From a candidate division FCPU426 bacterium (lineage in GTDB: Bacteria > Oederibacteriota > Muellerivitia > Muellerivitales > Muellerivitaceae): a stretch of DNA of 64,000 bases. Within the stretch, counting starts at the first letter, position 1. Each line of letters starts with the position of its first letter. The notes under the pieces were generated by a model, which saw only the letters and a program-made list of their open reading frames with translations, was not told the origin of the DNA and searched no databases. This document shows positions 1-25,754 of the stretch, one piece after another. Both the position numbers and the translations under genes were made by a program. The DNA lies in NCBI GenBank assembly GCA_963771075.1, contig CAVYSE010000011.1, positions 141,508-205,507 of the forward strand. Reading direction: 5' to 3'.

Positions 1-1
1 A

Positions 2-424
2 CGGCTTGGGATCGTCCACGTGCAGGCCCATATGGGGCCCGGTGGAAAAATGGACTTCGTGAGGGAACTCCAGTCGCTGGGACTGAAAGTCGCCATGGTC
101 GGGGATGGTTTCAACGACGCGGCGGCCTTGACCGCCTCCGATCTGGGGATCGCCATGGGAACGGGCACGGATGTGGCGAAAGAGTCCGGTGACATGGTTC
201 TGGTGAAAAGCGACCTGCGGAAGGTGGTGGAAGCGATCCAAATTTCCAGGGCCACCTTCCGGGTGATCCGACAAAACCTAATCTGGGCCTTTGGCTATAA
301 CCTGCTGGCCCTTCCCTTGGCGGTATTCGGTTCCGTCCCCCCCTCCTGGGCGGCGCTGGCCATGTCCTTCTCCTCCCTTTCGGTGGTGCTGAACGCCATG
401 AGGCTTTACCGGAAGAAGTTCTAA
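2..424 (+). CDS. P-type cation/heavy-metal translocating ATPase, C-terminal fragment (5' end lies outside the window)
   Basis: The translation contains the hinge motif VGDGFNDAAAL and the terminal TM helices typical of P1B-type ATPases. The ORF is open to the window edge. Confidence 0.8.
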   Translation, partial: RLGIVHVQAHMGPGGKMDFVRELQSLGLKVAMVGDGFNDAAALTASDLGIAMGTGTDVAKESGDMVLVKSDLRKVVEAIQISRATFRVIRQNLIWAFGYNLLALPLAVFGSVPPSWAALAMSFSSLSVVLNAMRLYRKKF

Positions 425-590
425 TCAATAAGCTTTTAGCCGTTAGCGGGTTGCTCTTGGCTAAAAGCTAAAATCCAAAAGTCGAAAACTGGACACGAAC
501 CGAGATGATTCCACCCCTTTTTCGCATTCTTGACGACCCCAGGCATCTTGCCTATCCTACAGCGCAATTCATGTCCGGAAGGAGTTGTCC

Positions 591-1718
591 ATGCGCCGTC
601 TATCCCTTCTTTTGTTGCTGCCTCTTCTTTTGACCCTTTCCTGCGGTCCCAAGTTGAACCCCAACGAGATCCGCATCGGCGAATTCGCCTCCCTGACCGG
701 ATCCCAGGCCACCTTCGGCCAATCCAACCATGAGGGACTGTTGCTGGCTGTTTCCGAGATCAACGCCGCCGGCGGGATCAACGGCAAGAAGCTGGTGGTG
801 ACCACCGTGGATGACCAGGGAAAACCCGAGGAAGCGGCGGTGGCAGTCACCAAACTCGTGAACCAGGATTCTTCCCAGGTCATTGTCGGTGAAGTGGCCA
901 GCTCCCTTTCCCTGGCGGCGGCGCCCATCTGCCAGAACAATAAGATCCCCATGATCTCCCCCTCCTCCACCAATCCCAAGGTGACCCAGGTCGGTGACTA
1001 TATTTTCCGGGTTTGCTTCATCGACCCCTTCCAGGGCCAGGTAATGGCCGATTTCGCCTTCGACAAGCTCAAGGCCAAAACGGCCGCGGTATTCCGCGAC
1101 CAAAAGAGCGATTACAGCATGGGATTGGCGGATTTCTTTATCGCCCGCTTCAAGGCCAAGGGCGGAACCATCGTGACGGACCAGAGCTACGTGCAGGGTG
1201 ACATCGATTTTAAATCCCAGCTCACCGGAATCCGTTCCGCCCAACCGGACGTGATCTTCGTCCCCGGCTATTACACCGAGGTGGGCCTGATCGCCCGGCA
1301 GGCCCGGGAATTGGGACTCAAACAACCGCTTTTGGGGGGCGACGGGTGGGACTCCCCCAAGCTTTTCGAGATCGGCGGGGCCGCGCTGGACGGCTGCTAC
1401 CACTCGGACCATTTCACGGCCCAATCGAACGACCCCATGGTGCAGGCCTACGTCAACAAATACAAAACCGCTTATGGTCACGTGCCGGACGCCCTGGCCA
1501 CCCTGGCCTATGACGCGGCGGGGGTTTTGGCCCAGGCTTTGAAGAATACCAAGAGCCTGAAGGGCGAAGACATCCGCGACGCCATTGTTTCCGTGAAAAA
1601 CTACCAAGGCGTGACCGGGTCCATCAGCCTCGGCGCCGACCGCAACGCGGTCAAACCCGCCGTGGTTTTGGAGATCGCGGGCGGCAAGGAAGTTTACGTG
1701 GCGACGGTGAATCCCTAA
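591..1718 (+). CDS. Branched-chain amino-acid ABC transporter substrate-binding lipoprotein (LivK/LivJ family)
   Basis: Signal peptide with lipobox LTLSCG. Periplasmic binding protein type I motifs are present (SLTGSQATFG, VDDQGKPEEA). RBS GGAAGGAG lies 5 nt before ATG 591; the TTG at 585 is in frame just upstream. Confidence 0.8.
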   Translation: MRRLSLLLLLPLLLTLSCGPKLNPNEIRIGEFASLTGSQATFGQSNHEGLLLAVSEINAAGGINGKKLVVTTVDDQGKPEEAAVAVTKLVNQDSSQVIVGEVASSLSLAAAPICQNNKIPMISPSSTNPKVTQVGDYIFRVCFIDPFQGQVMADFAFDKLKAKTAAVFRDQKSDYSMGLADFFIARFKAKGGTIVTDQSYVQGDIDFKSQLTGIRSAQPDVIFVPGYYTEVGLIARQARELGLKQPLLGGDGWDSPKLFEIGGAALDGCYHSDHFTAQSNDPMVQAYVNKYKTAYGHVPDALATLAYDAAGVLAQALKNTKSLKGEDIRDAIVSVKNYQGVTGSISLGADRNAVKPAVVLEIAGGKEVYVATVNP

Positions 1719-1939
1719 ACCTGTCATGGATCATCTTCGGGAATAAAGAACTGACAAAAACCGGGCCATTTTTATTTTTGGGCCGAATCGGAGGACCGGG
1801 CGCGGGAATATCGGAAAGAGATTGTGCAGTTTAGAATAATTTACATAGTATTCAACTCAACCGATTGCTTGTTTCCCCATTCCAAGGTTAACTTAATCTT
1901 CCCCCTCCACTTTTCAACTTTTGGGGAAGGAGTTTTCTC

Positions 1940-3214
1940 ATGGGATCAACCCTCGCCAGCAAGGCCGAACCCGCGAATTTCGATTTAAAGGAAATCTTGG
2001 CGGGTGAAAGGGTGGAAGCCCACTTCCAGCCCTTGGTTTCCCTGAAGCGCCAGTGCGTGGTGGGCCTGGAGGGCCTTTCCCGGGGGATCTTGCCCGGGAG
2101 CCGGGCCCTGATCCCCCCCTACGAGCTTTTCCGCCAGGCCGCCCTCCAGAATTTGGAAATCGAGCTCGACCTGCTTTGCCGCAAAAAAATCCTGGATTCC
2201 TTCCGGAACTTGCACGCCCAGCACCCCGATTACATACTTTCCCTTAACCTGGACGAGTCCGTCCTGGAAATGGGGTTGATCGGATCGGGCCAGCTGAGGC
2301 AGGAAGTTTCCGAAATGGGGTTGAAGCCCTCCAACGTCGCCATCGAGATCGTGGAATACCGGGTGGAGGATCTCAAGGAGCTCCAGCATTTCGTCGAAAA
2401 ACTCAGGGATTTTGGCTTCCTGATCGCCCTGGACGACGTGGGAGCGGGGCATTCCAACCTCAACCGCATCCCCCTCATCAAGCCCGATATCCTGAAGATC
2501 GACCGTTACCTGGTGGAAAACCTCCAGGACGATTTTTATAAAAAGGAGATCATCAAATCCATGGTTCGCATGGGACGCCGCCTTGGGACGGTCATCATCG
2601 CCGAGGGGGTGGAAACCGCCGAGGAAGCCCAAGTGCTCATGGAAATGGACGTGGATATGATCCAGGGCTTTTATTTTTCCAGGCCCCAAAGGCCCGCCGA
2701 CCTGAACGAGTCAGGGACCCTGGATAAAGTGAAGGAGGTCGTGCGGGACCATAAAACGCGGTCCCTGGAGCATATGGGGGTCAAACGGCGCAACATGAGC
2801 CGGTTCCACTCGATCCTCCTGGAAATCCAGGTGGAGCTTTCCGGCCTGGGGGAGGATCGGTTCGGCCCCAAGCTCCAGGAAATGGCGCACCGTTTTCCCC
2901 AGGTGGAGTGTTTTTATGTCCTGGATCACGCGGGCTTCCAGCTCACCGAAAGCGTCCTCAACATGATTCCGGGGGAAAAACGCAATCCCCGGTTATTCCA
3001 TCCCTCCCCCCGGGGAACGGATCATACCGCCCGGGATTACTGCTATTACCTGACGGAGGCGGGAACGAACAAGACCAGCTTCCTCACGGAGCCCTACCTT
3101 TCCATGACCTCGGGCAACAGCTGCGTCACCCTTTCCTCCCTTTTCAAGACGGGGGAGGGGACGCCCTTCATCCTTTGCTTGGATATCGATACCCAGGCGC
3201 TTCGGCAGTCCTGA
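1940..3214 (+). CDS. EAL-domain c-di-GMP phosphodiesterase with a C-terminal cytoplasmic Cache/PAS-like sensor domain
   Basis: EAL signatures are present: EGLSR (EAL-loop variant), DDVGAGHSNL, KIDRYLV, EGVET, QGFYFSRP. The C-terminal ~170 aa show the Cache-type motif DHTARDYCYY...TEPYLSMTSGNSCVTLS. No TM helices are apparent. Confidence 0.8.
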   Translation: MGSTLASKAEPANFDLKEILAGERVEAHFQPLVSLKRQCVVGLEGLSRGILPGSRALIPPYELFRQAALQNLEIELDLLCRKKILDSFRNLHAQHPDYILSLNLDESVLEMGLIGSGQLRQEVSEMGLKPSNVAIEIVEYRVEDLKELQHFVEKLRDFGFLIALDDVGAGHSNLNRIPLIKPDILKIDRYLVENLQDDFYKKEIIKSMVRMGRRLGTVIIAEGVETAEEAQVLMEMDVDMIQGFYFSRPQRPADLNESGTLDKVKEVVRDHKTRSLEHMGVKRRNMSRFHSILLEIQVELSGLGEDRFGPKLQEMAHRFPQVECFYVLDHAGFQLTESVLNMIPGEKRNPRLFHPSPRGTDHTARDYCYYLTEAGTNKTSFLTEPYLSMTSGNSCVTLSSLFKTGEGTPFILCLDIDTQALRQS

Positions 3215-3225
3215 AAATTCGGTGG

Positions 3226-4491
3226 TCAGGTTTCCGGTACCAGCTCAATCAGGGTGATCTCCGGGGAAAGGCCGAAACGCACGGGCATTCCCCAATAGCC
3301 CGTGCCCGTGGAAACGTAAAGCTGGCTTGGGCCCTGCCGGAACAAACCCATGTCGTATTTCAAAAAAAGCTTGGCCAAGGACCATTTCAGGAACTTGAAA
3401 CCCAACTGGCCCCCGTGGGTGTGGCCGCTTAAGGTCAATTCCACCCTCCGCCGGACCGATTCCTTGAATAGTTGGGGATTGTGGGCCAGAAGCACCGTGG
3501 GGATGCCGGGGGGTTTATTCCCCAGGGCCTTTTCGAAATCGGGGGCGAACTCACCGATCATTCCCATCCTTCGGCCGCCCGGGTCGCCAATCCCCGCCAA
3601 CCAGAAACTTTCCCCTCCCCGTTTTATTTCCACACCCTCATTTACCAGCATCCGAATCTTGCTGTCCTTCAAGGCCCTCAGGGTCTTCGCAGGGTTGGCG
3701 TAAATGTCATGGTTTCCCAGGATGCCGTATTGGGGCAGGGTTTCGGGAAAAGCGGAGAATCCTTCCAGGAATTTGGGGATATAAAAGGGATCGTCGTCGG
3801 AAATATCCCCGCAAACGGTGAAGAGATCGGGGTTCTCCCGAAGGATGGCTCGGGAGAACCGCCTCAAGCGGGATAAACGGGTAAGGAGTCCGACATGGGT
3901 GTCGGAGACCATGGCGATTTTATAACCCTTAAACACGCTCCCCAAGCCTGGGATAACGACCCGAACCCTTTCAACGCGGACCATGAAAAGGGTTTGGAAG
4001 AAACCGAAAACGGTGATGAACCCGAGGGTTCCCAAAAAAAGGTTGAAGGGGACCTGGGCAAAGGCCCAGAAGGGATGTCCCCCCCAATGGAAAATGAGAA
4101 GCCACAGAATGGCCAGGACCAGCAAGAAGAGGGTAGAAAGCAAACTGAGGAAGGTCCAAAAAATGAAAAAAGGAGCAAGTAAAGTCTTCGCCCATCGGAA
4201 TAAAGGGGAGGAATGGCCCCGCAAGATCAGGGGTAAGAGAAGCCAAAGCAGGTTGCCCAGGATGGCGCCCAGCAAGACGATCAGCCAATGCTTGGGATAA
4301 AGGGTATAACCCGCCAAAATGGCGACCGCATTGAGAAGGAAAAAGACGCTGAGTACCAGGTTCCAGATGAGAACGGTGCGGCGTTTGGCCAAAAGGACCC
4401 TCCGGGAGGTTGAAGAGGCATCATATTCGGGTGGGGGTCGGCCCAAGTCAAGACGGAGAAAACCAACATCCACCACGAAGCCACCCGCCAT
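3226..4491 (-). CDS. Membrane-anchored calcineurin-like metallophosphoesterase (YkuE-like)
   Basis: N-terminal polytopic TM region followed by phosphoesterase motifs GDISDD, GNHD and GHTHGGQ. Convergent with the EAL gene. Confidence 0.8.
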   Translation of the reverse strand: MAGGFVVDVGFLRLDLGRPPPEYDASSTSRRVLLAKRRTVLIWNLVLSVFFLLNAVAILAGYTLYPKHWLIVLLGAILGNLLWLLLPLILRGHSSPLFRWAKTLLAPFFIFWTFLSLLSTLFLLVLAILWLLIFHWGGHPFWAFAQVPFNLFLGTLGFITVFGFFQTLFMVRVERVRVVIPGLGSVFKGYKIAMVSDTHVGLLTRLSRLRRFSRAILRENPDLFTVCGDISDDDPFYIPKFLEGFSAFPETLPQYGILGNHDIYANPAKTLRALKDSKIRMLVNEGVEIKRGGESFWLAGIGDPGGRRMGMIGEFAPDFEKALGNKPPGIPTVLLAHNPQLFKESVRRRVELTLSGHTHGGQLGFKFLKWSLAKLFLKYDMGLFRQGPSQLYVSTGTGYWGMPVRFGLSPEITLIELVPET

Positions 4492-4584
4492 AAATGCTTA
4501 ATGGAAGGTGGCATGTGTTGGATGTGTCTTTTCGGCGCCGGGACCATTAAAATTCAAAGCATCCTTGGATAATTTAAGGAAGGT

Positions 4585-5487
4585 ATGGAAAGTTTTTTCC
4601 AGCTTTTATTGAACGGATTGGCCCTGGGTTCGATTTATTCCCTCATCGCCCTGGGTTACACGCTCGTTTATGGAATCCTGCGGCTCATCAATTTCGCCCA
4701 CGGGGATATCGTGATGGTGGGAGCCTATGCCGGGTTGTTTACCGCCACAGCCTTGAACGCCGGGGACCATCCCAGTTTGGTTAAATTTCTTCTCATCCTT
4801 CTCGCGTCCATGATCGTTTCGGGTTTGCTGGGCTATTGGATCGAGCGCCTGGCCTACCGGCCCTTAAGGAACGTGCCAAGATTGAACCTGCTCATCACCG
4901 CCGTGGGGGTCTCCCTCCTTTTGGAAAATCTGGGGCAGGTGATCTTTGGCGCCACGCCGAGGGTTTTCCCCGACATTATGCCGGAAACTTCCATCTTTCA
5001 ATTCGGCCCCATCTCCATCACCAACCACCAAATGACCGTCTTCGGCACGGCCTTAGTTTTAATGATCGTGCTGGAATGGATCGTCCTGAAAACCAAACTG
5101 GGACGGGCCATGAGGGCCGTTTCCCATTCCCACGAGGTAGCCTCATTGGTCGGCATCCCGACGGATAAAATAATATCCTTCACCTTCATCATCGGTTCGG
5201 TCCTGGCGGCGGCGGCCGGCATCCTGGTAGGAGTTTCCTATCCACGGGTGGACCCCCTGATGGGGGTCATGATCGGCATCAAGGCCTTCGTGGCGGCGGT
5301 ATTGGGGGGCATCGGCAGCATCCGAGGTGCGGTCGTGGGAGGGTTCGTGATGGGCGTGGCCGAATCGATGGTAGCGGGTTACGGGGGTTCCACTTACCGG
5401 GATGCCCTGGCATTCGCCATTTTGATTCTCATCCTGGTGTTCAAGCCCGCCGGATTGTTCGGCAAGTACCAGCCGGAGAAAGTGTGA
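4585..5487 (+). CDS. livH: Branched-chain amino-acid ABC transporter permease LivH
   Basis: N-terminus LLNGLALGSIYSLIALGYTLVYGILRLINFAHGD is typical of LivH. About 8 TM helices. Confidence 0.85.
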   Translation: MESFFQLLLNGLALGSIYSLIALGYTLVYGILRLINFAHGDIVMVGAYAGLFTATALNAGDHPSLVKFLLILLASMIVSGLLGYWIERLAYRPLRNVPRLNLLITAVGVSLLLENLGQVIFGATPRVFPDIMPETSIFQFGPISITNHQMTVFGTALVLMIVLEWIVLKTKLGRAMRAVSHSHEVASLVGIPTDKIISFTFIIGSVLAAAAGILVGVSYPRVDPLMGVMIGIKAFVAAVLGGIGSIRGAVVGGFVMGVAESMVAGYGGSTYRDALAFAILILILVFKPAGLFGKYQPEKV

Positions 5488-5499
5488 GAGGAATCGAAC

Positions 5500-5805
5500 A
5501 TGCCCTTTGAAAGATGCGTCGGGCTGGAAATCGGGAACGAGGAACTCTACAAACAATACCGTGAGGCCATAGCCCCTATCCTCGCCCGCTACGGCGGGGC
5601 GTTCCGTTATGACTTTAAGGTGTGCGAGGTTTTGAAATCCGAAACCCCCGCACCCATTAATCGGGTGTTTTTTCTCACCTTCAAGGACCGGGAAACCCAC
5701 GACGGTTTCTTCGCGGACCCGGAGTACAAGCAAATCCGGGAAAAGTTTTTCAAACCATCCGTTCTTAATTCAACTTTACTAGGCGGTTATGAACGAAATG
5801 CTTGA
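5500..5805 (+). CDS. DUF1330 family protein
   Basis: About 100 aa with a DUF1330-like pattern (YREAIAPILARYGG...FKDRETHDGFFADPEYKQ). Inserted between livH and livM. Confidence 0.65.
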   Translation: MPFERCVGLEIGNEELYKQYREAIAPILARYGGAFRYDFKVCEVLKSETPAPINRVFFLTFKDRETHDGFFADPEYKQIREKFFKPSVLNSTLLGGYERNA

Positions 5806-5823
5806 TATACCCAATATCCTCTC

Positions 5824-5921
5824 TCCTTCTCCCCTTGAGGGAGAAGGTTTGGATGAGGGGGATATTTCTCTCGCAAGGCACCCCTCACCCTATCCCTCTC
5901 CCTCAAGGGGCGAGGGAAGCT
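5824..5921. repeat. Pair of GC-rich hairpin-forming repeats (CCTTCTCCC-cttga-GGGAGAAGG and a related CTCCCTC...GAGGGAAG unit)
   Basis: A perfect 9-bp stem lies at 5825-5847. A second imperfect copy lies at about 5894-5919. Both are intergenic between DUF1330 and livM. Confidence 0.4.
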
Positions 5922-5940
5922 GGAAAGAATCAGGCAATAA

Positions 5941-6897
5941 ATGAAATCAAACCTAATGGGGATATTGATCCTTCTATCGGCCGCCGTGGTGGCGCAGGGT
6001 CTGGCCTATTTACTTCCCCCCTATTTCGCCGAACTTTTCATCTTCGCTCTCATTAACGCCATATTGGCGGTTTCCCTGAACCTGGTGAACGGCCTTTCAG
6101 GCCAATTTTCCTTAGGGCACGCAGGCTTCATGGCGGTAGGGGCATACACAGCCGCTTCGGTTAATGTTTTCCTATTAGGCTCGATGCACGGAACATTTGT
6201 GGGGGATCAATTTTCATTGATTCTCTCATTGTTGGCCGCGGCTGTGGCGAGCGCCATGGCGGGCTATTTGGTAGGGTTGCCTTCCTTAAGACTGAGGGGA
6301 GATTACCTGGCCATCGCTACCTTGGGATTCGGGGAAATTATCCGCGTGGTGATCCTGAATATTCAGGCCGTCGGTGGGGCCAGGGGTTTTATCGGCATTC
6401 CCGGAACGACCACCGCATTCTTGACGGCTTTGATTCTGGCCGCCTGCGTGGTGGCCACCCATCGTTTCGTGCTTTCGACCCACGGACGGGCTTTGTTAGC
6501 CATTCGGGAAAATGAGATCGCGGCAGAGGCAATGGGGGTCAATACCACACGCTTTAAAGTCCAGGCTTTTGTGGTTTCCTCGGCGGTGGCGGGTGTGGCA
6601 GGGGGGCTATTCGCCCATTACCTTTCCTTTATCAATCCCAGTTCCTTTGATTTCATGAAATCGGTGGAGATCGTGATCATGGTGGTCTTGGGGGGAATGG
6701 GCTCGGTTTCGGGCTCCATCCTGGCGGCCTTCATCATCACCTTTTTGCCCGAAGCTTTGCGGCCCCTTCAGCAAGTGACAGGAGTGGATTTGAGGATGGT
6801 GATCTATTCGCTCAGCTTGATTTTGATGATGCTTTTACGGCCCAAAGGCATGTTTGGCCGCAAGGAGCTGTGGCAGATGTTTCAAAGAAAGACTTAA
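5941..6897 (+). CDS. livM: Branched-chain amino-acid ABC transporter permease LivM
   Basis: Motifs GQFSLGHAGFMAVGAYTAA and GDYLAIATLGFGEIIR are typical of LivM. Polytopic membrane protein. Confidence 0.85.
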   Translation: MKSNLMGILILLSAAVVAQGLAYLLPPYFAELFIFALINAILAVSLNLVNGLSGQFSLGHAGFMAVGAYTAASVNVFLLGSMHGTFVGDQFSLILSLLAAAVASAMAGYLVGLPSLRLRGDYLAIATLGFGEIIRVVILNIQAVGGARGFIGIPGTTTAFLTALILAACVVATHRFVLSTHGRALLAIRENEIAAEAMGVNTTRFKVQAFVVSSAVAGVAGGLFAHYLSFINPSSFDFMKSVEIVIMVVLGGMGSVSGSILAAFIITFLPEALRPLQQVTGVDLRMVIYSLSLILMMLLRPKGMFGRKELWQMFQRKT

Positions 6898-7092
6898 TCA
6901 AAGGCTTTTATTCCTAGTTTAAAAATTAAGTTGTATCAATCCCTCCGCAAGAAATACCCTTCCATCCAGCCGGGCTATCACATGAACAAGCGGCATTGGA
7001 ATACGGTGGTATTGGATGGGTCCCTGCCCCCTAGCTTGATCCGTAAGATGGTGGAGTTGTCCTATGTGCTTGTATCACCTGAAAAATATTGA
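6898..7092 (+). pseudogene. 5'-truncated remnant of a YjbR/MmcQ-family gene (C-terminal ~60 codons only)
   Basis: The in-frame translation ...LRKKYPSIQPGYHMNKRHWNTVVLDGSLPPSLIRKMVELSYVLV matches the conserved C-terminal PGYHMNKKHW...LDG core of YjbR/MmcQ proteins. The frame is open right up to the livM stop, so the N-terminal half is missing. Confidence 0.5.
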
Positions 7093-7096
7093 AAAT

Positions 7097-7363
7097 TTAT
7101 TCGTAATGAGTCCACATACGGATGACTTTTACGGTTTTGATGTCCTTTAAGACCTGATAAACCAACCGGTGATGGATATTGATCCTTCGGGAATAGGCTC
7201 CTTCAAGGTCGCCAACCAATTTCTCGAAAGGAGGAGGATTCCGGTAGGGATCTTCGGCCAGGATACCCAACAGGTATTCGACTTTATCCCTTAAACCCGA
7301 CGATGAAATCTTTTTGGCATCCTTCAATGACTGCTTCGTATATAGAAGCCGCCAGTTCACCAT
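7097..7363 (-). CDS. yoeB: YoeB/Txe-family toxin (type II TA, mRNA interferase)
   Basis: 88 aa. The sequence ...GAYSRRINIHHRLVYQV... resembles the YoeB RNase fold signature. Overlaps the upstream antitoxin by a few nt. Confidence 0.8.
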   Translation of the reverse strand: MVNWRLLYTKQSLKDAKKISSSGLRDKVEYLLGILAEDPYRNPPPFEKLVGDLEGAYSRRINIHHRLVYQVLKDIKTVKVIRMWTHYE

Positions 7364-7599
7364 TTAATCTTTGGGGAGAGTTTTGAAATAGGTGTTGCTA
7401 ATCCTTTGCGGATGGATTCGCGCATGCCGGGAATGGAAATCAGGTAGAGGGTTTCCTGAATGGCCCGCCAATCCTCCTCGGAAACGAGCACGCCATTCGC
7501 CCTTTTGCCGGTGATTTGAATGGGCACATGGTTTTTCGCCGTCTCGTCCAAAAGCTTGTATAAATTGGCCCGTACCCGGCTGGCAGTCATAGTGGTCAT
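7357..7599 (-). CDS. yefM: YefM/Phd-family antitoxin
   Basis: MTASRVRANLYKLLDETAKNHVPIQITGKRANGVLVSEEDWRAIQETLYL is a typical Phd/YefM. RBS AAGGAGG lies 5 nt upstream of ATG 7599. The longer ORF back to 7644 is probably not used. Confidence 0.8.
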   Translation of the reverse strand: MTTMTASRVRANLYKLLDETAKNHVPIQITGKRANGVLVSEEDWRAIQETLYLISIPGMRESIRKGLATPISKLSPKIKW

Positions 7600-7616
7600 A
7601 GGAACCTCCTTTGATA

Positions 7617-7640
7617 ACGTACCATATTGCGTACGTTTTG
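7617..7640. promoter_or_regulatory. Perfect 7-bp inverted repeat AACGTAC-N8-GTACGTT immediately upstream of yefM; candidate TA operator
   Basis: The palindrome overlaps the likely promoter of the yefM-yoeB operon. YefM-YoeB complexes are known to autorepress via palindromes upstream of the operon. Confidence 0.4.
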
Positions 7641-7660
7641 TCATGTTCCCAAGAATAGGT

Positions 7661-9973
7661 TTATTTGAGATTGATCTTTTTTAAAATTTTCCTCAGTTGT
7701 TCATCCCCGAATTTACCCACCGAGAAACCCCCAATCCGGCTGAGGGGCATCTCATTAATAAAGGCCATCAAGGCTTTGGTGGCCTTCTCAATATCGGCTT
7801 TTTCACGGGCGGAAAGCTTCTTGCTTCTAGAATCCCTCCCAATCGCACCGGCCAAACCGGTCGCCTTCAACAAAAGTTCATAATAGGTTTTACCCTTGGA
7901 ATGCCGGGCCACATCTTTCATCATGGATTCGGTGGTTAAAGTCTGAACAAATGTTTTATTCCCCGTGATCTTTATTGATTTCTTTAGGGGCAGGTCACGG
8001 GAGGAAGACCCCACCAGAATGTCATAAATGCCAGGGTTTACCCTTCGCCGGTGCAGGGTCGAGTCCCAATAACCCAATGAGCTTTCAGGGATGTTGAAGG
8101 CCACCTTTTTGGATTGGGCAGGGTTCAAAAGGACTTTCGAAAAGGCCTTGAGTTCCTTGTTGGGTCTCGCGACCTCGGGATTTTGTTCCCGGGTGTAAAG
8201 CTGGACCACTTCCTTACCCGGCCTTTTTCCGGTGTTCTTGATAGTGGCTTCCACATGAATCATCCGGGCCTTGTATGAAACCCTGAGGCGGGAATAGGTG
8301 AAGGTGGTGTAACAAAGCCCGAATCCGAAGGGGAAGAGGGGCTCGATCTTGCGAATGTCATAGTGACGGTATCCCACAAAGATTCCCTCGCCGTAATTGG
8401 CTTGGCATCCTAAACCCGGGAACTCAGGATAGGCCGGAGTGTCCTCCAGTCTTTGGGGAAAGGTTTCAGCCAGTTTGCCGCAGGGATTTGCCCTTCCAAG
8501 GAGGATGTCGGCGATGGCCCCGCCACCCGCCTGGCCTCCCAACCAAGCTTCCAAAACGGCCTTTGACTTCGAGATCCAGGGCATGGAAACCGCCGAACCA
8601 TTCATCAAAACCACGACTAGATTGGGTTGGGACTTGGCGATTTCCTCGATCAGCTTTTGATGTCCGGGGGGGAGATCGAGAGTTTTCCGGTCAAAACCTT
8701 CTGATTCGTAGCTGTCCGGTAAGCCCACAAAGAGCAGGGCGATATCGCTTTGTTCCGCCATGCGGCGGGCTTGGGAAAGGAGGACAGGCGTAATCTCTCC
8801 CTCTGGTTTGTATCCCGGTGCGAAAGAGAACTCGATCTTGTCTCCGGCCATTTTGACCAACTCCTCATATGCGCAGTCCAATTTCGTGGCGTTCACTTGT
8901 GAACTGCCAGCACCCTGGAAGCGGGGTTCCTGGGCGAAGGCTCCGATGACGGCTATTTTTAAATTTTTGTTTGGATTAAGGGGAAGCAGTCCGCCCTCAT
9001 TCTTGAGCAAGACCATGCTTTCGGCGGCGGCGATCCTGGCCAATTGATGGTGAGAGTTTTTGTTATAGGAAGCGTTCATTTTGCGACCTTCGGAGGCTTT
9101 GAGGACCACGGCCAGCAATTGCGTGGCGGCTTCATTCAATTTTTCGGTTTGGAGGCCGCCCTTTTGAACCGCCCTGATGATCTTGTCCCGGTTGTAGGGC
9201 CCGCTGCCCGGCATTTCCAAGTTCAGCCCGGCCTGGATACCCTTGATTCGGTCTTTCACCGCTCCCCAATCGGAAACCACAAAGCCCTGGAAGCCCCATT
9301 CTTTTCTCAAGACCTGGTTCATCAACCATGCGTCTTCCGAAACCTGGACTTCGTTGAGCCTGTTATAGGAGCACATGACGGCATAGGGCTGAGCTTCCCT
9401 GATGGGAATCTCGAAGGCCCGCAGGTAAATCTCACGCAGGGTCCGCTCGTCGATATTGGAGCTGGAGGTCATGCGTTCGTATTCCTGATTGTTGGCGGCA
9501 TAATGTTTAAGGGTGGCTCCCACCCCTTCGCTTTGGACTCCCCGAACGTGGGCGGCGGCCATCTTGCCGGCCAAGAGCGGGTCCTCGGAAAAATACTCGA
9601 AGTTGCGCCCGCCCAAAGGCGACCTTTTCAGGTTGTTGCCGGGTCCGAGCAAAAGCTGGACATCATTGGCCTGGCACTCCCTCCCTAAGGCCGCGCCCAC
9701 TTGTCCCAGTAGGTCCGGGTCCCAGGAGGAAGCCAGGCAGGAGGCGGTGGGGAAGCAGGTGGCGGGCACGCTGGAGGTGATATCCGCGCCTGTTGCCTTG
9801 CGAAGGCCGTGGGGCCCGTCTGTCATAAAGATGGAGGGAATACCCAACCGATCGAAGGCGCAGGTCTTCCACCAGCCATCGCCGGTGAGGAAGGTGGCTT
9901 TTTCCTTGAGAGTCATCCGTCTTACCCGTTTTTTCGCTTTCGACACGTATGGATTATTTTTGGGAAGGTGCAA
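7661..9973 (-). CDS. Glycoside hydrolase family 3 beta-glucosidase (BglX-like) with an extended C-terminal tail
   Basis: GH3 N- and C-domains are present (GFVVSDWGAV, KHYAANNQE). About 110 extra C-terminal residues are rich in K/E. The start may be TTG 9973 or ATG 9916. Confidence 0.85.
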   Translation of the reverse strand: MHLPKNNPYVSKAKKRVRRMTLKEKATFLTGDGWWKTCAFDRLGIPSIFMTDGPHGLRKATGADITSSVPATCFPTASCLASSWDPDLLGQVGAALGRECQANDVQLLLGPGNNLKRSPLGGRNFEYFSEDPLLAGKMAAAHVRGVQSEGVGATLKHYAANNQEYERMTSSSNIDERTLREIYLRAFEIPIREAQPYAVMCSYNRLNEVQVSEDAWLMNQVLRKEWGFQGFVVSDWGAVKDRIKGIQAGLNLEMPGSGPYNRDKIIRAVQKGGLQTEKLNEAATQLLAVVLKASEGRKMNASYNKNSHHQLARIAAAESMVLLKNEGGLLPLNPNKNLKIAVIGAFAQEPRFQGAGSSQVNATKLDCAYEELVKMAGDKIEFSFAPGYKPEGEITPVLLSQARRMAEQSDIALLFVGLPDSYESEGFDRKTLDLPPGHQKLIEEIAKSQPNLVVVLMNGSAVSMPWISKSKAVLEAWLGGQAGGGAIADILLGRANPCGKLAETFPQRLEDTPAYPEFPGLGCQANYGEGIFVGYRHYDIRKIEPLFPFGFGLCYTTFTYSRLRVSYKARMIHVEATIKNTGKRPGKEVVQLYTREQNPEVARPNKELKAFSKVLLNPAQSKKVAFNIPESSLGYWDSTLHRRRVNPGIYDILVGSSSRDLPLKKSIKITGNKTFVQTLTTESMMKDVARHSKGKTYYELLLKATGLAGAIGRDSRSKKLSAREKADIEKATKALMAFINEMPLSRIGGFSVGKFGDEQLRKILKKINLK

Positions 9974-10086: not shown

Positions 10087-11757
10087 TTAATGGATCAATA
10101 TAACTTTTTTGATCTCACGGTCATTGGGAACGGTTAAGTAAATAATGTAAATGCCGCTGGCGCAAGGGTTATTGGCGTAGTTCGTACCGTCCCAAGGGGG
10201 GCCGGGATAGGTGATGGGCTTAGAGGCGATTTGATCGGGAACCAGGGCTTTCACGAACTCTCCGGCGGAGTTGTAAATCTTTAAGGAATAGGGCCCTGGG
10301 AAGAGGCTGTATCCCACGAGGATGGAAAGGGGGCCTTGGGAGGGTTTAAAGACATTTTGGCTCACGTAAAAGCGGTCGGTATAGGGAATGGTCGCGGTGG
10401 GGGACAATGTGATCGTGGGTGTTAGGGTAATAGTCGGGGTCAAGGTGATGGTGGGCGTTAGGGTGATGGTGGGAGTTGAAGTATGGGTCGGGGTTAAGGT
10501 TTGGGTGGGGGTGTAGGTGGGAGTGGAGGTTTGAGTGGGGGTAAAGGTGTAGGTGGGAGTGGGTGTGACCGTAAGGGTAAGGGTGACCGTGGGCGAAAGG
10601 GTGATGGTAGGAGTCGGAGTGACGGTGAAGGTGTAGGTGAGGGTGGGTGTAAAGGTGGGCGTGGGCGTGATCGTCTGGGTGTTGGTTGGAACGCAATTGC
10701 CCGAAACGGGCAGGGCCACGGTGACAGGTGCGGAATTTGAACTGCCCCAACTTACCCCGGCGGCATTGAAGATGGAGCAGGGTGAGCCTTGAACCGTATT
10801 TAAATCGGCCAGGTAGTCCATCACAGTGACGCAAGCGCCATTGCCGCCGAAACCGAGCGGAAATTCGAAATCCATCGAGGATCCAATTTGCTGGGTGGAA
10901 TACATTTGGGAGGGCGGGCTGTAGCTGAGCCATGGCCCTTGGTACCCGCCAGTGGAAGCCAAGTTCTGGTCCCAAACCGTGACGGGGCCGTTGACGGGCG
11001 CTCCGCTGTTGCACACCACGAGGGTATAGGGCTCATTAGGGGTGTCGTTGGATTGGGGATAGGAAGAAAACCCCGGGATCAACTGGACGGAAAAGGTGGG
11101 AGGCGTGTAGGGGACCGGATTTAAATTAAAGGTCCCCAGGTAATAAAGATTTTGAAGGGCATTGGTGGCGGTTCCCGATGAGTTGAGGGAAGAGTCGGGC
11201 TGGATTTGGCCCGTCTCAGGGTTGTACATGGGTTGCAACCATGGGTCGTCCCCTGCGGCCACGGTGACTGGCAGGGTCGTGAAATATTCGGCGCTGACCG
11301 CGGCGGAATAATTGGGTGAATACCAGGGGTTGCCCGACCCATCCAGGGTGGGTGGGGCCGAGGCGGAAACGTCGTTGTACATCATGTAGCCCGGGTCGGT
11401 ATTGGAAAAATAAGCGTGGGAACCGCTGGCGCAGGCGACGTCAATGACCCAGGCGGCCTGTAGTGAAATCAGGGACGTGTTAAGGTTCTCAACGGCGACC
11501 GTATTGGAACCCGTGTTGAAATAACCTGCAGGGATGGGGAAAGTGGGAGGGACCCCGGGAGCGGTGACGAAGGTGACGGGCCCGATCGGGCCGTTCCCAT
11601 TGACCCAAACATCCATGATGTCATCGGCGGAGCCGTAGAGGGTGGCGGCGGAGGGGGAACAGGTTTGTGCCCAAGCGCTTACCGAGAAGCCCAAAAGGGA
11701 CCAAGCGATGAGCAGGATCGGTAAGGCTTTCTTAAGGGAGTTTGAAATCTTGTTCAA
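10087..11757 (-). CDS. Secreted Cys-containing protein with a long Thr-Pro-rich linker and a C-terminal por-secretion-type (TIGR04183/FlgD-Ig-like) sorting domain
   Basis: Signal peptide, then about 100 aa of TPTxT repeats. The C-terminus FYVSQNVFKPSQGPLSILVGYSL...LKIYNSAGEFVKAL...GIYIIYLTV...KKVILI matches the por_Secre_tail pattern. Starts at TTG. Confidence 0.7.
   Translation of the reverse strand: MNKISNSLKKALPILLIAWSLLGFSVSAWAQTCSPSAATLYGSADDIMDVWVNGNGPIGPVTFVTAPGVPPTFPIPAGYFNTGSNTVAVENLNTSLISLQAAWVIDVACASGSHAYFSNTDPGYMMYNDVSASAPPTLDGSGNPWYSPNYSAAVSAEYFTTLPVTVAAGDDPWLQPMYNPETGQIQPDSSLNSSGTATNALQNLYYLGTFNLNPVPYTPPTFSVQLIPGFSSYPQSNDTPNEPYTLVVCNSGAPVNGPVTVWDQNLASTGGYQGPWLSYSPPSQMYSTQQIGSSMDFEFPLGFGGNGACVTVMDYLADLNTVQGSPCSIFNAAGVSWGSSNSAPVTVALPVSGNCVPTNTQTITPTPTFTPTLTYTFTVTPTPTITLSPTVTLTLTVTPTPTYTFTPTQTSTPTYTPTQTLTPTHTSTPTITLTPTITLTPTITLTPTITLSPTATIPYTDRFYVSQNVFKPSQGPLSILVGYSLFPGPYSLKIYNSAGEFVKALVPDQIASKPITYPGPPWDGTNYANNPCASGIYIIYLTVPNDREIKKVILIH
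10395..10700. repeat. Degenerate tandem 9/18-nt repeats (GGT-rich on plus strand) encoding the TPTITL-type linker
   Basis: Repeated GGTGATGGTGGG / GGTGTAGGTGGGAGT units are visible. The alternative-frame His-rich ORF (10346-11014) is an artefact of this repeat. Confidence 0.7.
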
Positions 11758-21722: not shown

Positions 21723-22460
21723 ATGAAAATCAGTCCCGATTGGACGGTTCGGGAAGTCGCTTCGCAAATCCAAGCTTCCATTCCGCTTTTTGAATCGCTT
21801 CATATTGACTATTGTTGCAATGGCCAACAAACATTGAAAGAGGCCTGTGTTACTTTGGAAATCCCCGTGGAAAAAGTCTTGGATTCGCTAGAGCGCATGG
21901 TGAACAAAACCCCCTCCAATCCAGATGCGCCCAACCCATGGGCTAAAAAAAGTATTCCGGAGCTTATTGACCATATCCTGGAAATCCATCACCCATTCAC
22001 GCGAGTCCAGCTCAATCGATTGATGAAATTGTCCGAAAAGGTTTCGCGCCTACATGCGGTCCGCCATCCCGAATTGATCCAATTGAACGGTTTGTTGGTC
22101 AAAATGGCCGAGGAGTTGGAAAGCCACATGGTGAAGGAAGAAGAAGTGGTTTTCCCCTGCCTCCGGAAACTTTGGGATTCGAGGCGAAAGAGAAAAAAAT
22201 TGGAAAATCCTTTTTTCCAAGGGGGGCAGGAAGATCCGGTCCATGTACTCGTCTGGGAACATGGAATGACAGGGGAGGAATGGCAAGAAATCCACCGTTT
22301 AACCAAAGATTACACCACGCCCGCGGATGCTTGCGTGTCCTATCGGTCCCTGTACCAGGGGTTGAAAGAGCTGGAGGATGATTTGCACCGGCACATTCAC
22401 CTGGAAAATAACATCCTATTTTACCGTCTCCAGCAATTGGGACTTTTGGGCTCCCTTTGA
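21723..22460 (+). CDS. Iron-sulfur cluster repair di-iron protein (RIC / YtfE / ScdA family)
   Basis: N-terminal ScdA_N motif (LHIDYCCNGQQTL) followed by hemerythrin-like His/Glu repeats. Confidence 0.8.
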   Translation: MKISPDWTVREVASQIQASIPLFESLHIDYCCNGQQTLKEACVTLEIPVEKVLDSLERMVNKTPSNPDAPNPWAKKSIPELIDHILEIHHPFTRVQLNRLMKLSEKVSRLHAVRHPELIQLNGLLVKMAEELESHMVKEEEVVFPCLRKLWDSRRKRKKLENPFFQGGQEDPVHVLVWEHGMTGEEWQEIHRLTKDYTTPADACVSYRSLYQGLKELEDDLHRHIHLENNILFYRLQQLGLLGSL

Positions 22461-22500
22461 TTCATCCGAAGCGACAACTCAAGAAAGGCTGCTTTTTCAA

Positions 22501-23280
22501 ATGATGACCATGAATCAAATGGACCTAAGGGGGATTGCCCACGGCTGGGAGCAAAAAATCCTTTCCGCTTTTGATGGTTTGAACGAGGGACAAGCGTTGG
22601 AAATCCTCGTGGATTGGGACCCAACCCCACTACATTTCCTGTTATTGAAGGAAAGAACCAGGCTTTTCCGATGGGAAAACCGGGAAAAAAAACCGGATCA
22701 TTGGAAGATCCGCCTCCTGCGAGTGGCGCATGGATTGGGGGAAGCCCCGGCCTCGGAACCGCCGGTTTTGACTCCCCGGCCTAACATCAGCCCGCGACCC
22801 GCCTGGATTGACGATTTGAACCCTTCCTGTGGACTTTTTTTGGACATTCGACCCCTTACTGAGAAAGGGCTGGACCCCTTTCAAATGATTGTCCAATCGG
22901 CGAAAGAGTTAAAACCCGGCCAACACCTGCACTTGGTCCAAAATGAGCAGCCGGAGTCTTTTATTTGTGCCCTGGGTCGGTTAGGGTATGAGGGGTTTGC
23001 CGAAATGAAAGGCGGGGTTTGGAACGCCTATTTCCGAAAGGGTAAGATTCCGCCCACCGGCCAACCGGTAATGGAACTGGATGTGAGACGGTTGACGCCG
23101 CCCCTTCCACTATTGAAGGTGCTGGAATCCCTTCCCTTGATCTCATCGGAAGGCGTTTTGAAGGTATTCTTCCCAAATCGCCCGGATAGTTTGATCGAGA
23201 AACTCCAGGCGCATGGTTTTGAGGTGAAGTGGGAAGCTTCCGAGGGTGGGGCGTTTGTACTTTGGATATGGAAAAAATAA
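22501..23280 (+). CDS. Protein composed of three tandem DUF2249-like modules
   Basis: Three repeats of the pattern LD[LIV]R.L.P..P...[IV]......L..G..L.[VL].....P: LDLRGIAHGWEQKIL..., LDIRPLTEKGLDPFQMIV..., LDVRRLTPPLPLLKVL.... The ORF in the track extends upstream (22378) in overlap with ytfE. ATG 22501 is the first start after the ytfE stop. Confidence 0.6.
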   Translation: MMTMNQMDLRGIAHGWEQKILSAFDGLNEGQALEILVDWDPTPLHFLLLKERTRLFRWENREKKPDHWKIRLLRVAHGLGEAPASEPPVLTPRPNISPRPAWIDDLNPSCGLFLDIRPLTEKGLDPFQMIVQSAKELKPGQHLHLVQNEQPESFICALGRLGYEGFAEMKGGVWNAYFRKGKIPPTGQPVMELDVRRLTPPLPLLKVLESLPLISSEGVLKVFFPNRPDSLIEKLQAHGFEVKWEASEGGAFVLWIWKK

Positions 23281-23379
23281 TCCAAAACCAGCGAAAGCTG
23301 AGTACCGATGTATGCCGGCGTGAATCGACGGGCCATGAACGGTCCTTGGATTCATGAACAATGTTGATTGGGAGCGACG

Positions 23380-24819
23380 ATGACAGAACCGATGATTATT
23401 CAGGGAGGAATGGGCGCCGGGGTTTCCAATTGGGTCTTGGCCCGCGCGGTTTCCCAGACAGGCCAGATGGGGGTGGTTTCCGGAACCGCTTTGGATTCGA
23501 TTATGGTCCGCCGGTTGCAAACCGGCGATATGGATGGAGCCATGCGACGGGCCCTGGTCGCCTTTCCCGACCCTGCCGTGGCCAAGCGCATTTTGGACCG
23601 TTATTTCATTCCCGGCGGCAAAAAAGATCATGAGCCTTTTCGATTGATCCCCATGTTCACCCTTACTCCGCCGAAAGAACTGGTGGAACTCAATGTGGCC
23701 GCCAATTTCGCGGAAGTTTGGCTCGCGAAGGAAGGGCACTCGGGCAAGGTCGGCATCAATTTCCTTGAAAAGATTCAAATGCCCCTCCTTTCCTGCATCT
23801 ATGGGGCCCTGTTGGCGAACGTGGATTATGTCCTCGTGGGCGCGGGCATTCCCCGGGCCATTCCGGCGATCCTCGATAAGTTGTCCCAGCATGAGGATGC
23901 CTCCATGAAGATCTATGTCCAGGGTGCCTCCGCTGAGGAGGAAAGCATCATGACCTTTCGCCCCCGGGATATCCTGTCGGAGATAGGCGAGGCGCTCAAG
24001 CGGCCCCGGTTTCTGGCCATCATCGCCTCGGAGGTCTTGGCCCTAACGCTTGCCAAGAAGTCCACGGGCAAGGTGGACGGCTTCGTAGTGGAAGGCCCCA
24101 CGGCCGGGGGGCATAACGCCCCGCCTCGCGGGCCCCTCCAGCTCAATGACAGGGGAGAACCGCTTTATGGGGTCAAGGATGAGGTGGACCTGCAGAAGAT
24201 CAAGGCCATCGGCCTTCCCTTTTGGGTGGCGGGTTCCATGGCCGACCCGGCTAAGCTCAACGCGGCTTTGGAAGCCGGTGCGGCGGGCCTGCAGGTGGGG
24301 TCCGTGTTCGCTTATTGCGAGGAATCAGGCCTCGCCGACTGGATCAAAAAAAAGGTGATCGAGGGTTTGCGGGCGGGATGGGTGCATGTTTTTACCGACC
24401 CCAAGGCCTCCCCAACGGGTTTTCCCTTCAAGGTGGTGAATGTCCCTGGGACCAATTCCGAATTAGGGGATTATCAAAAGCGAAAACGTATCTGCGACCT
24501 GGGATACTTGCGGAGCCTTTATAAGCGGAAAGACGGAACTCCGGGTTACCGTTGCGCCAGCGAACCCCACGAAGCCTATCTGCAAAAGCAGGGTGAAATG
24601 GCCAACACGGAGGGTCGCAAATGCCTTTGCAACGGTTTAATGTCCAATATCGACTTGTCCCAATCCCAGAAGGATGGGAGCGTAGAACGGGCGCTCGTTA
24701 CTTCCGGTGACGATGTGGGCAGGATCCTGAATTTCCTCAAGGGCGGCAAGGAATCCTATTCGGCCATCGAGGTGGTCGAGTATCTCCTGGGTTCCCGGAT
24801 TCCCGCGGCGGCGGTTTAA
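23380..24819 (+). CDS. Nitronate monooxygenase / 2-nitropropane dioxygenase (NMO, FabK-like) family FMN oxidoreductase, long form
   Basis: The N-terminal motif MIIQGGMGAGVSNWVLARAVSQTGQMGVVSG is typical of NMO. RBS GGGAG precedes ATG 23380. The overlapping minus ORF 23143-23892 is judged spurious. Confidence 0.75.
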   Translation: MTEPMIIQGGMGAGVSNWVLARAVSQTGQMGVVSGTALDSIMVRRLQTGDMDGAMRRALVAFPDPAVAKRILDRYFIPGGKKDHEPFRLIPMFTLTPPKELVELNVAANFAEVWLAKEGHSGKVGINFLEKIQMPLLSCIYGALLANVDYVLVGAGIPRAIPAILDKLSQHEDASMKIYVQGASAEEESIMTFRPRDILSEIGEALKRPRFLAIIASEVLALTLAKKSTGKVDGFVVEGPTAGGHNAPPRGPLQLNDRGEPLYGVKDEVDLQKIKAIGLPFWVAGSMADPAKLNAALEAGAAGLQVGSVFAYCEESGLADWIKKKVIEGLRAGWVHVFTDPKASPTGFPFKVVNVPGTNSELGDYQKRKRICDLGYLRSLYKRKDGTPGYRCASEPHEAYLQKQGEMANTEGRKCLCNGLMSNIDLSQSQKDGSVERALVTSGDDVGRILNFLKGGKESYSAIEVVEYLLGSRIPAAAV

Positions 24820-24855
24820 TCGGCCTTCTCCATGAGGGACTCAAAAGTGACTTAA

Positions 24856-24873
24856 TTATGACAGGGGTCATGT
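24856..24873. promoter_or_regulatory. Palindromic motif site TTATGAC-aggg-GTCATGT (upstream of the phosphoribosyltransferase gene)
   Basis: Matches the recurring 7-4-7 palindrome. Intergenic between the NMO gene and the PRTase gene. Confidence 0.5.
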
Positions 24874-25002
24874 GGCGCCCCGGTACCGGGGACCATAATC
24901 AAATCCAACTTCGCCGATTGGTTTTTGTAAGTTGAAGTTTTGCCCCGCGTCGAAACAATTTGGGGGGAACCTTTTAAGTCGCGTGTTGGGGATCAAACGA
25001 AC

Positions 25003-25704
25003 ATGAAACTCAAATTAAAATCCAAGTTTCCCTTTCGGGACCGAGACCAAGCCGCCCGGATGCTTTGCGAGAAACTTTTCCATTATCGAGGGCTGAACCC
25101 GCTGGTCCTCGGCCTTTCTCCCGCGTCCGTGCCCATGGCCTGTCTCTTGGCCCGTTACCTGAAGGGTGAGGCGGATATTTTATTGGTCGAGAAGATTTAT
25201 TCTCCCGAAAACCCCCATTTGGCGTTGGGAGTACTGGCGGAAGGCGGCGCTTTTACGCTCGCGCCCGGGGGAGGCCAAATGTGGGTTCCGCCCCATTTTC
25301 TGGAAGAAGAAATGCGCAAACTGTCCCACGGCCTTCAGGAACGCCGGAAATTATATACCCCCCAAAGGGCGCTCCTCTCCTGCGCGAACCGCGTCGTGAT
25401 CCTGATCGACGATCTCGCCAAAACGGGGGTAAGCCTTTGGGCCGCCTATCGGGAGGTGGATGGCCGGCATCCCGCCCAGGTGGTGGTAACGGTCCCGGTG
25501 GCGACTCCCGCGGCCTTGGAACTGTTGCGACGGGAAACGGAAGAAGCCTTTGCCCTCTGGTCCGGCGATCAATGGTCTACCCCGTCGGAGATTTACGAAA
25601 TCAACGTGAAGATCAGCGAAGAGGATGCCGCGGAATTCCTGCATCCCGTCGATCCGGACCTGTTGGTTTCCCGTGGACGAGCCCACTCGATTCCCGCCAA
25701 CTAA
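25003..25704 (+). CDS. Type I phosphoribosyltransferase-fold protein
   Basis: PRPP-binding motif VVILIDDLAKTGVSLWAA. ATG 24940 is an alternative start. Confidence 0.65.
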   Translation: MKLKLKSKFPFRDRDQAARMLCEKLFHYRGLNPLVLGLSPASVPMACLLARYLKGEADILLVEKIYSPENPHLALGVLAEGGAFTLAPGGGQMWVPPHFLEEEMRKLSHGLQERRKLYTPQRALLSCANRVVILIDDLAKTGVSLWAAYREVDGRHPAQVVVTVPVATPAALELLRRETEEAFALWSGDQWSTPSEIYEINVKISEEDAAEFLHPVDPDLLVSRGRAHSIPAN

Positions 25705-25754
25705 ACTCCTTGTGCCTATTTGGAAGCGCGCCCCTATAATGAGCCTTTCTTAAA

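Follow-up and report, generated by a model that had tools for sequence, protein, structure and literature searches.

A predicted soluble EAL-Cache phosphodiesterase of the YkuI type encoded beside Liv-like transporter genes in a candidate division FCPU426 bacterium

We have analyzed a 64,000-nucleotide stretch of contig CAVYSE010000011.1 (GenBank assembly GCA_963771075.1; positions 141,508 to 205,507) from a candidate division FCPU426 bacterium; this whole stretch is referred to as the window. Near its 5' end lies a gene, hereafter the EAL-Cache gene, whose product is very probably a soluble, cytoplasmic phosphodiesterase (PDE) of cyclic di-GMP (c-di-GMP) built like YkuI of Bacillus subtilis. 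An N-terminal EAL TIM barrel is predicted to be followed by a helix of ~45 residues and a C-terminal, single-module Cache (PAS-like) sensor. The basis computed here consists of the two domains, the fold matches, the YkuI-like arrangement, the conservation of the catalytic residues and a near-invariant cluster of residues in the Cache core. The protein represents an unannotated family that is distinct from the members of the YkuI_C model and is of the known YkuI-type EAL-Cache kind. Its novelty is modest, as both architecture and fold are already known and would not surprise a specialist.

The start codon of the EAL-Cache gene is supported by homologs of 424 amino acids that cover 100% of the protein. 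A Pfam scan returned the EAL domain (E = 2.6e-48, 164.9 bits against a cut-off of 31.3) and neither a GGDEF domain nor any other domain. Neither a transmembrane helix nor a signal peptide was found in the protein. Its Kyte-Doolittle mean over 19 residues peaks at 0.97, whereas the transmembrane segments of the neighboring permease and metallophosphoesterase-like (Metallophos) proteins reach at least 1.6, and the protein is therefore taken to be soluble. A preliminary description of this DNA, made from the letters alone, had proposed an EAL phosphodiesterase with intact motifs and a Gly in its EGLSR string (E44-G45-L46-S47-R48), without transmembrane helices and without a GGDEF partner in the protein, and all of this is borne out. 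A second paralog was sought across the window and none was found, leaving a single copy.

Catalytic conservation was assessed in an alignment of 68 full-length homologs (44-80% identity). Q30, R48, E136, E139, D166, K186, E222, E225 and Q242 are invariant, and E44, N103 and D165 are kept in 67 of the 68. The catalytic and metal-binding set (Q, E(x)L-x-R, N, E-x-x-E, D-D, K, E-G-V-E, Q) is thus complete, each position being at least 98% conserved, and the scored catalytic positions are still at least 90% conserved across 92 more divergent members. These motifs align with those of the active PDEs CC3396 PdeA, PA0575 and MorA. The Gly in the middle of the "EAL" string (G45) occurs in 67 of the 68 homologs, and the same position is variable in YkuI too, where it is Val. 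Loop 6 is identical to the canonical DDFG(T/A)GYSS at six of nine positions, including both Asp and both Gly residues, and its three departures (F to V, Y to H, S to N) are shared throughout the family. Where YkuI reads V-D-N-I-G-K-E-S-S-N the family reads L-D-D-V-G-A-G-H-S-N, so that, unlike YkuI, it has kept the second metal-binding Asp and most of the loop. Because of the D165-D166 pair, the near-canonical loop 6 and the at least 98% conservation of the catalytic residues, members of the family are probably active c-di-GMP PDEs and not merely receptors.

The C-terminal half was placed by structure prediction and by profile comparison. AlphaFold2, run on the 68-sequence alignment, gave a model with a predicted local distance difference test score of 89.5 and a predicted template modeling score of 0.79. 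When this model was compared with the PDB using Foldseek, the top four matches were YkuI chains (415-426 aligned columns, TM-scores of 0.72-0.80), and the remaining matches covered the EAL domain only (228-276 columns). A profile of the full-length family likewise found YkuI (2bas/2w27) as its best solved match at E = 1e-40, with profile positions 20-403 aligned to chain residues 34-411 across both domains. For the sensor half separately, hhalign paired a C-terminal profile of 23 sequences with the YkuI C-domain over 90 columns (probability 66%, E = 5.7e-5). With a sensor-core profile of 48 sequences at 28-44% identity, the YkuI C-domain was the top PDB match at a database-wide E of 8e-5, and the Cache receptors 7w0w, KinD, CtaA 6pxy, 3lif and PctA fell just below the threshold. 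Scanned singly, the 92 divergent members all carry EAL; there are seven matches to dCache_1 (best 3.7e-7), three to MCP-like_PDC_1 and one to YkuI_C (0.0037). Among the structural matches, the amino-acid receptors CtaA, PctA, Tlp3 and McpA show the highest identities (18-20%).

The predicted layout is that of the Cache superfamily (CL0165), a long N-terminal helix leading into a PAS-like alpha/beta core. In the model the core runs from a helix (305-316) through three strands (322-328, 333-334 and 339-340) and a loop containing a short helix (366-372) to three further strands (380-387, 394-403 and 409-417). It forms one alpha/beta module of ~120 residues after the linker helix, and the double-module architecture of dCache domains is absent. 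The likeness to the YkuI C-domain is structural as well as detectable by remote sequence comparison, and the domain lies C-terminal to EAL in a protein free of transmembrane helices, as YkuI_C does. A Cache fold is confidently predicted for the C-terminal domain, and sequence and fold both support its homology to the Cache superfamily.

Several points weigh against this reading. Residues 252-424, searched against Pfam and NCBIfam at E <= 10, gave no meaningful match to any sensor model, YkuI_C included (matches to PerC and DUF7050 are noise). In a search of the PDB, the profile of 23 fairly close C-terminal sequences found nothing significant, and YkuI was absent from its results. The only studied relative, YkuI, is reported to be inactive and a possible c-di-GMP receptor (PMC5422440; PMC9589206), and it is from YkuI and other EAL enzymes (PMC3032553) that dimerization, ligand binding and allostery are extrapolated to the present protein. 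A control run of the YkuI sequence, rebuilt from the alignment, against PF10388 (YkuI_C) gave a match at 1.4e-63; the model therefore works, and its failure to match the window protein reflects the divergence of that protein. The preliminary description had assigned the C-terminal region to Cache and had let that assignment depend on a match to a Cache or PAS model; there is no Pfam-level match, so that it formally falls on its own terms, and the AlphaFold2, Foldseek and profile evidence overrules this outcome.

The status of YkuI raises the alternative that the protein is catalytically silent in vivo and acts as a c-di-GMP receptor or effector, its Cache domain serving for output or partner binding. 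The Bacillus literature treats YkuI, the nearest solved relative and a protein of the same overall architecture, as an inactive EAL protein and candidate receptor. Set against this are the D-D-V-G-A-G-H-S-N of the family where YkuI has D-N-I-G-K-E-S-S-N, the alignment of the catalytic residues with those of active PDEs, and their retention in both the 68 homologs and the 92 divergent members, which is the strict conservation expected of an enzyme. We consider a silent receptor improbable.

The preliminary description had presented the catalytic-first order and a cytoplasmic Cache domain as unusual. That view does not stand, as this is exactly the architecture of YkuI. Cache families are mainly extracellular except for two small, principally intracellular ones, Diacid_rec and YkuI_C (PMC4822843; restated in a 2022 review, PMC8846402). 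YkuI_C is a Cache-clan family with the structure 2W27, and 178 of its 277 members are linked to c-di-GMP turnover domains (Upadhyay et al. 2016, PMC4822843). With YkuI_C on record as an intracellular Cache family, the placement of a cytoplasmic Cache domain behind EAL is a described architecture and no anomaly. The two proteins are alike in length (~407 residues in YkuI, 424 here), in the order of EAL, long helix and PAS-like/Cache domain, and in being soluble and cytoplasmic. They differ in that identity is only ~21% overall and 15-17% in the C-domain, in their response to PF10388, in the loop 6 of YkuI, which is degenerate and has D-N in place of D-D, and in a set of invariant residues that the family has of its own (Q334, C395, C413 and H/Q362).

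Other known systems share parts of this plan. The dCache_1 and dCache_1AA domains of PctA, CtaA, Tlp3 and KinD have the pattern [KR]-x-[WY]-[YF] ... P-Y ... G ... T ... D at equal spacing; they are double-module domains, whereas the domain described here is a single cytoplasmic module placed after the output domain and without flanking transmembrane helices. The typical extracytoplasmic Cache site between two transmembrane helices is absent, which fits the intracellular exceptions YkuI_C and Diacid_rec. BlrP1 (BLUF-EAL), RocR (REC-EAL) and DosP (PAS-GGDEF-EAL) share the full EAL catalytic set, and comparison with them would lead one to expect regulation by way of loop 6 and the interface of the EAL dimer (PMC3032553). 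In those proteins the sensor precedes EAL and belongs to other folds or families, while here it follows EAL.

To estimate family size, 1.84 billion representatives were searched exhaustively with a hidden Markov model of the C-terminal profile. At E <= 0.001 the search recovered 752 proteins, which puts the family at ~750 clusters at 50% identity; 511 of the proteins reach E <= 1e-10. The architecture does not change across the 752 representative clusters. Almost every complete member has 400-435 residues with the C-terminal domain beginning near residue 250, and more than 100 homologs of 415-435 residues align end to end with the window protein. Longer members are rare: P0124 (691 residues), P0201 (622), P0144 (597), P0137 (555) and P0193 (486). 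Among the 92 members scanned, three also carry GGDEF, two a receiver domain and one an AMPK1_CBM domain. The closest relatives in reference genomes are FCPU426 metagenome-assembled genomes (MAGs) from peat, bog and soil, with 72-74% identity in the C-domain, and FCPU426 genomes hold two to four or more EAL-Cache copies. The host phyla are many and mostly anaerobic; distant members occur in Bacillota (Desulfosporosinus, Pelotomaculum, Acetobacterium and Aneurinibacillus), Desulfovibrionaceae, Nitrospirota, Elusimicrobia, Deferribacterales, Leptospirales, Spirochaetota, Acidobacteriota and Fibrobacteraceae.

All 120 best homologs are annotated with PF00563 alone. The sensor half goes unseen in databases because these proteins are named only as "EAL domain-containing protein". 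Recognition of a YkuI-type Cache domain offers a working model for ~750 clusters from anaerobic phyla that have been little studied, among them the uncultured FCPU426 with its multiple copies. Because its catalytic site is intact, unlike that of YkuI, the family may be a better system than YkuI in which to study intracellular Cache sensing and the control of an EAL dimer by a C-terminal sensor.

Within the C-terminal half, G332, Q334, H362, S388, G392, T397 and C413 are invariant in the 68-homolog alignment. A near-invariant cluster of polar and aromatic residues (Q334, D361, H/Q362, K/R365, Y367, Y386, S388, T397 and D415) lies in the Cache core. Y386, S388, G392, C395 and T397 are at least 95% conserved, and the putative pocket residues hold at this level across phyla, whatever the gene context. 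Part of this cluster is in register with the amino-acid motif (AA_motif) of dCache_1AA domains, which reads Y121-x4-R126-x-W128-Y129, then 13-17 residues to Y144 and 27-34 residues to D173 (PMC8915833). The family has K/R365-x-Y367-Y/F368, 17 residues to Y386 and a further 28 residues to D415. In this register the window protein has T360, R365, Y367, C368, Y386 and D415, and the family as a whole has A/T/S, K, Y, Y/F, Y and D as its consensus. R365, Y367 and C368 would thus correspond to R126, W128 and Y129, Y386 to Y144, and D415 (29 after Y386) to D173. The alignments support the register, as the family K-D-Y-Y pairs with the R-D-W-Y of McpA 7w0w, and T-E-P-Y...C-L-D-I pairs with the T-E-P-Y...G-G-D-L of the amino-acid receptor CtaA 6pxy (TEPYIDAATGQ). 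The strings that the preliminary description had singled out as a Cache signature, DHTARDYCYY (361-370) and TEPYLSMTSGNSCVTLSS (383-400), do line up with the R-x-W-Y, P-Y and D of Cache receptors.

The motif is incomplete in the window protein. An equivalent of Y121 is missing (T/S/A360), W128 is replaced by Tyr, and R126 is mostly Lys in the family and Arg in the window protein. Tyr at the W128 position is found in amine sensors, and single mismatches to the motif abolished binding in published controls (PMC10104139). Because of those controls, the partial motif is a weak indication of an amino-group ligand, and the putative pocket would weakly favor a ligand of that kind. Q334, C413, C395, T397, S388 and H/Q362 are invariants without a counterpart in dCache motifs. 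As the same putative pocket residues occur in all contexts and phyla, the ligand does not track the locus; to judge from this conservation it is most likely a common cellular metabolite shared across the whole family and not specific to one locus.

Metal sensing was considered in view of the invariant Cys and His residues and of metal-efflux neighbors (a P-type ATPase in the window and a CDF gene in locus L008, described below). By strand register, C395 and C413 lie ~4 residues apart along the beta-4/beta-5 hairpin, probably too far for one metal. The link of YkuI to zinc is indirect, through the extracellular matrix (PMC5189952). Sensing of a metal by the Cache domain is at best remotely conceivable.

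A further alternative is that the Cache-fold domain binds no ligand and is only a dimerization or scaffolding module for a constitutively active PDE. It would agree with the failure of the C-terminal domain against Pfam sensor models, no ligand or cofactor can be assigned to the domain, and no ligand is known for the PAS-like domain of YkuI. The near-invariant residues are mostly polar or aromatic and occupy the places in the sequence at which Cache receptors touch their ligands, which is unexpected of a purely structural module, and we regard a ligand-free scaffold as very improbable.

For a soluble sensor-enzyme, a mechanism may be drawn on the pattern of YkuI, as reported by Minasov and colleagues in 2009, and of other EAL enzymes (PMC3032553). 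The protein would form an EAL-EAL homodimer with the long helices side by side, and a small cytoplasmic ligand would bind the putative Cache pocket. The helix at the N-terminal end of the Cache domain would relay the resulting change to the interface of the EAL dimer and to loop 6, by which the metal-binding Asp is positioned, and hydrolysis of c-di-GMP to pGpG would be switched on or off. Because the Cache domain ends the protein, the signal must exit via its N-terminal helix, in the direction opposite to that taken in membrane Cache receptors, where a C-terminal transmembrane helix carries it (PMC4822843).

The EAL-Cache gene lies, as the preliminary description had stated, between a Peripla_BP_6 gene and two permease genes; that description left unmentioned the Metallophos and DUF1330 genes of the locus (Table 1). 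The binding protein is most similar to LivJ/K, although it falls well short of the equivalog cut-off, and the transporter genes in general score below the LivJ, LivH and LivM equivalog cut-offs. The EAL-Cache protein, with EAL and Cache domains only, is a neighbor of Liv/HAAT transporter genes and not a transporter component.

Table 1. Coordinates of the EAL-Cache gene, its predicted domains and motifs, and the neighboring genes in the window
Feature	Position	Strand	Remarks
Lipoprotein binding protein gene, Peripla_BP_6, LivJ/K-like	585..1718	+	Directly 5' of the EAL-Cache gene
Shine-Dalgarno-like AAGGAG	1927..1932	+	7 nucleotides 5' of the ATG of the EAL-Cache open reading frame; direct sequence reading
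EAL-Cache open reading frame, YkuI-type	1940..3214	+	Complete, 424 amino acids plus stop
EAL domain, residues 17-249	1988..2686	+	Pfam PF00563; catalytic residues intact; loop 6 DDVGAGHSN
Predicted long linker helix (Cache alpha-1), residues 257-301	2708..2842	+	DSSP on both AlphaFold2 models; links the EAL barrel to the sensor core; corresponds to the long YkuI helix when the full-length structures are superposed
Predicted Cache sensor core, residues 305-424	2852..3211	+	
Putative pocket motif 1, residues 359-369, G-T-D-H-T-A-R-D-Y-C-Y	3014..3046	+	Conservation; alignment to 7w0w
Putative pocket motif 2, residues 383-397, T-E-P-Y-L-S-M-T-S-G-N-S-C-V-T	3086..3130	+	Alignment to CtaA 6pxy
Strand beta-5 motif, residues 412-416, L-C-L-D-I	3173..3187	+	C413 invariant; D415
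Metallophos gene, membrane-anchored, YaeI-like	3226..4491	-	Convergent with the EAL-Cache gene
LivH-like permease gene, BPD_transp_2	4585..5487	+	
DUF1330 gene	5500..5805	+	Between the two permease genes
LivM-like permease gene, BPD_transp_2	5941..6897	+	

Conservation of the locus was examined in 13 distinct loci in which the EAL protein is 54-77% identical to the query. The binding-protein gene is directly upstream in 12 of them, the Metallophos gene is downstream in 11 and the LivH gene in 10; the others, L011 and L015, are short and break off just beyond the EAL or the Metallophos gene. The order that is kept runs from the binding protein through EAL, the Metallophos gene on the opposite strand, LivH and, in some loci, DUF1330 to LivM. 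The upstream P-type ATPase gene, unrelated to the transporter, is syntenic too, and part of the synteny may therefore be plain lineage relatedness. Locus L008 is the exception: a homolog 77% identical to the query comes there directly after a CDF cation-efflux gene and ahead of a CBS-GGDEF diguanylate cyclase gene and cheA. Unrelated contexts are also the rule for paralogs in these genomes and for ~60 more distant members, except for L053, a Desulfobacteraceae MAG in which a liv operon is adjacent and divergently transcribed; one such case in ~60 loci is within chance expectation.

This locus bears on a model that goes back to the preliminary description, which had suggested a small ligand, possibly an amino acid, and a tie between c-di-GMP turnover and nutrient uptake. 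In it, a branched-chain (or other) amino acid brought in by the neighboring Liv-like transporter would be sensed in the cytoplasm by the Cache domain, and c-di-GMP turnover would follow uptake. The gene order kept in 12 of the 13 loci, three of them with tandem duplicates inside the block, speaks for the model, as do the independent liv adjacency in L053, the K/R365, Y367, Y/F368, Y386 and D415 in AA_motif register and spacing, and the highest identities among the structural matches being to CtaA, PctA, Tlp3 and McpA. Other points stand against it. The synteny that takes in an unrelated P-type ATPase may reflect shared ancestry in one lineage; the homolog in L008, at 77% identity, is outside any liv context; and the paralogs and distant members located elsewhere carry the same putative pocket residues. 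The L053 adjacency is of a frequency that chance would allow, the AA_motif lacks its first Tyr and departs at the W128 and R126 positions, single mismatches were enough to abolish binding in the published controls, and, with the transporter genes scoring below the equivalog cut-offs, their substrate is putative. The model is rather unlikely in our estimation.

Similarly doubtful is a broader proposal for the family. It would be a widespread, unannotated intracellular Cache lineage that has kept the half of the universal amino-acid motif that binds the amino group (Y386 and D415) together with a basic residue for the carboxylate (K/R365), and that reports the cytoplasmic level of an amino acid or amine directly to c-di-GMP hydrolysis. 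One of the FCPU426 copies would then be wired into the Liv-like locus, and the imported substrate would lower c-di-GMP. This would, if true, give the dCache_1AA sensors their first counterpart in the cytoplasm, one that signals in reverse via the N-terminal helix.

Several observations concern the locus itself. A gene for an ATP-binding cassette ATPase (LivG/LivF) was sought in the locus and in the whole window, and none was found, nor was any pair of Walker A and LSGGQ motifs; the syntenic loci L001 and L002 are also without ABC_tran genes within 8 kb. The DUF1330 gene is present in the syntenic loci L001, L002, L007 and L016 and absent from L013, L017, L020 and L022. Tandem EAL-Cache duplicates (51-60% identity) occur within the liv block in three MAGs (L010, L016 and L020), and in L019, L021, L025, L033 and L040 a paralog ~36% identical to the query adjoins a family member on the opposite strand. 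L008 (6088-13356) has a pair of PDE and diguanylate cyclase genes in place of the liv context, with genes for a TonB-dependent receptor, ExbB and TonB further upstream.

The Metallophos protein is YaeI/LpxG-like with ~4-5 N-terminal transmembrane helices, and 11 bp separate its stop codon from that of the EAL-Cache gene. Its gene is syntenic at 44-71% identity. That it might act in the same nucleotide pathway, for example in the turnover of pGpG, is pure speculation.

Regulatory elements were also sought. Rfam models revealed no riboswitch or other RNA element in the 221-nucleotide spacer between the binding-protein and EAL-Cache genes or in the rest of positions 1-8000. The sole Rfam match, to the mir-3072 model in the spacer between DUF1330 and LivM (5831-5910, minus strand), falls short of the gathering score of 86 (36.5 bits, E = 0.0024) and is almost certainly due to chance. 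Promoter and terminator scans gave site numbers no higher than in shuffled sequence.

Beyond the LivM-like gene, a pair encoding a YoeB-like toxin and a Phd/YefM antitoxin follows directly (7097-7644, minus strand), and next to it is a GH3 glycosidase gene (7661-9973, minus strand). An open reading frame of 556 amino acids at 10087-11757 (minus strand) has no Pfam match at E <= 1e-4. Further downstream (21723-26519, plus strand) is a run of genes for a ScdA_N-hemerythrin protein, a DUF2249-TusA protein, an NMO-like protein, a phosphoribosyltransferase and a ZIP zinc transporter.

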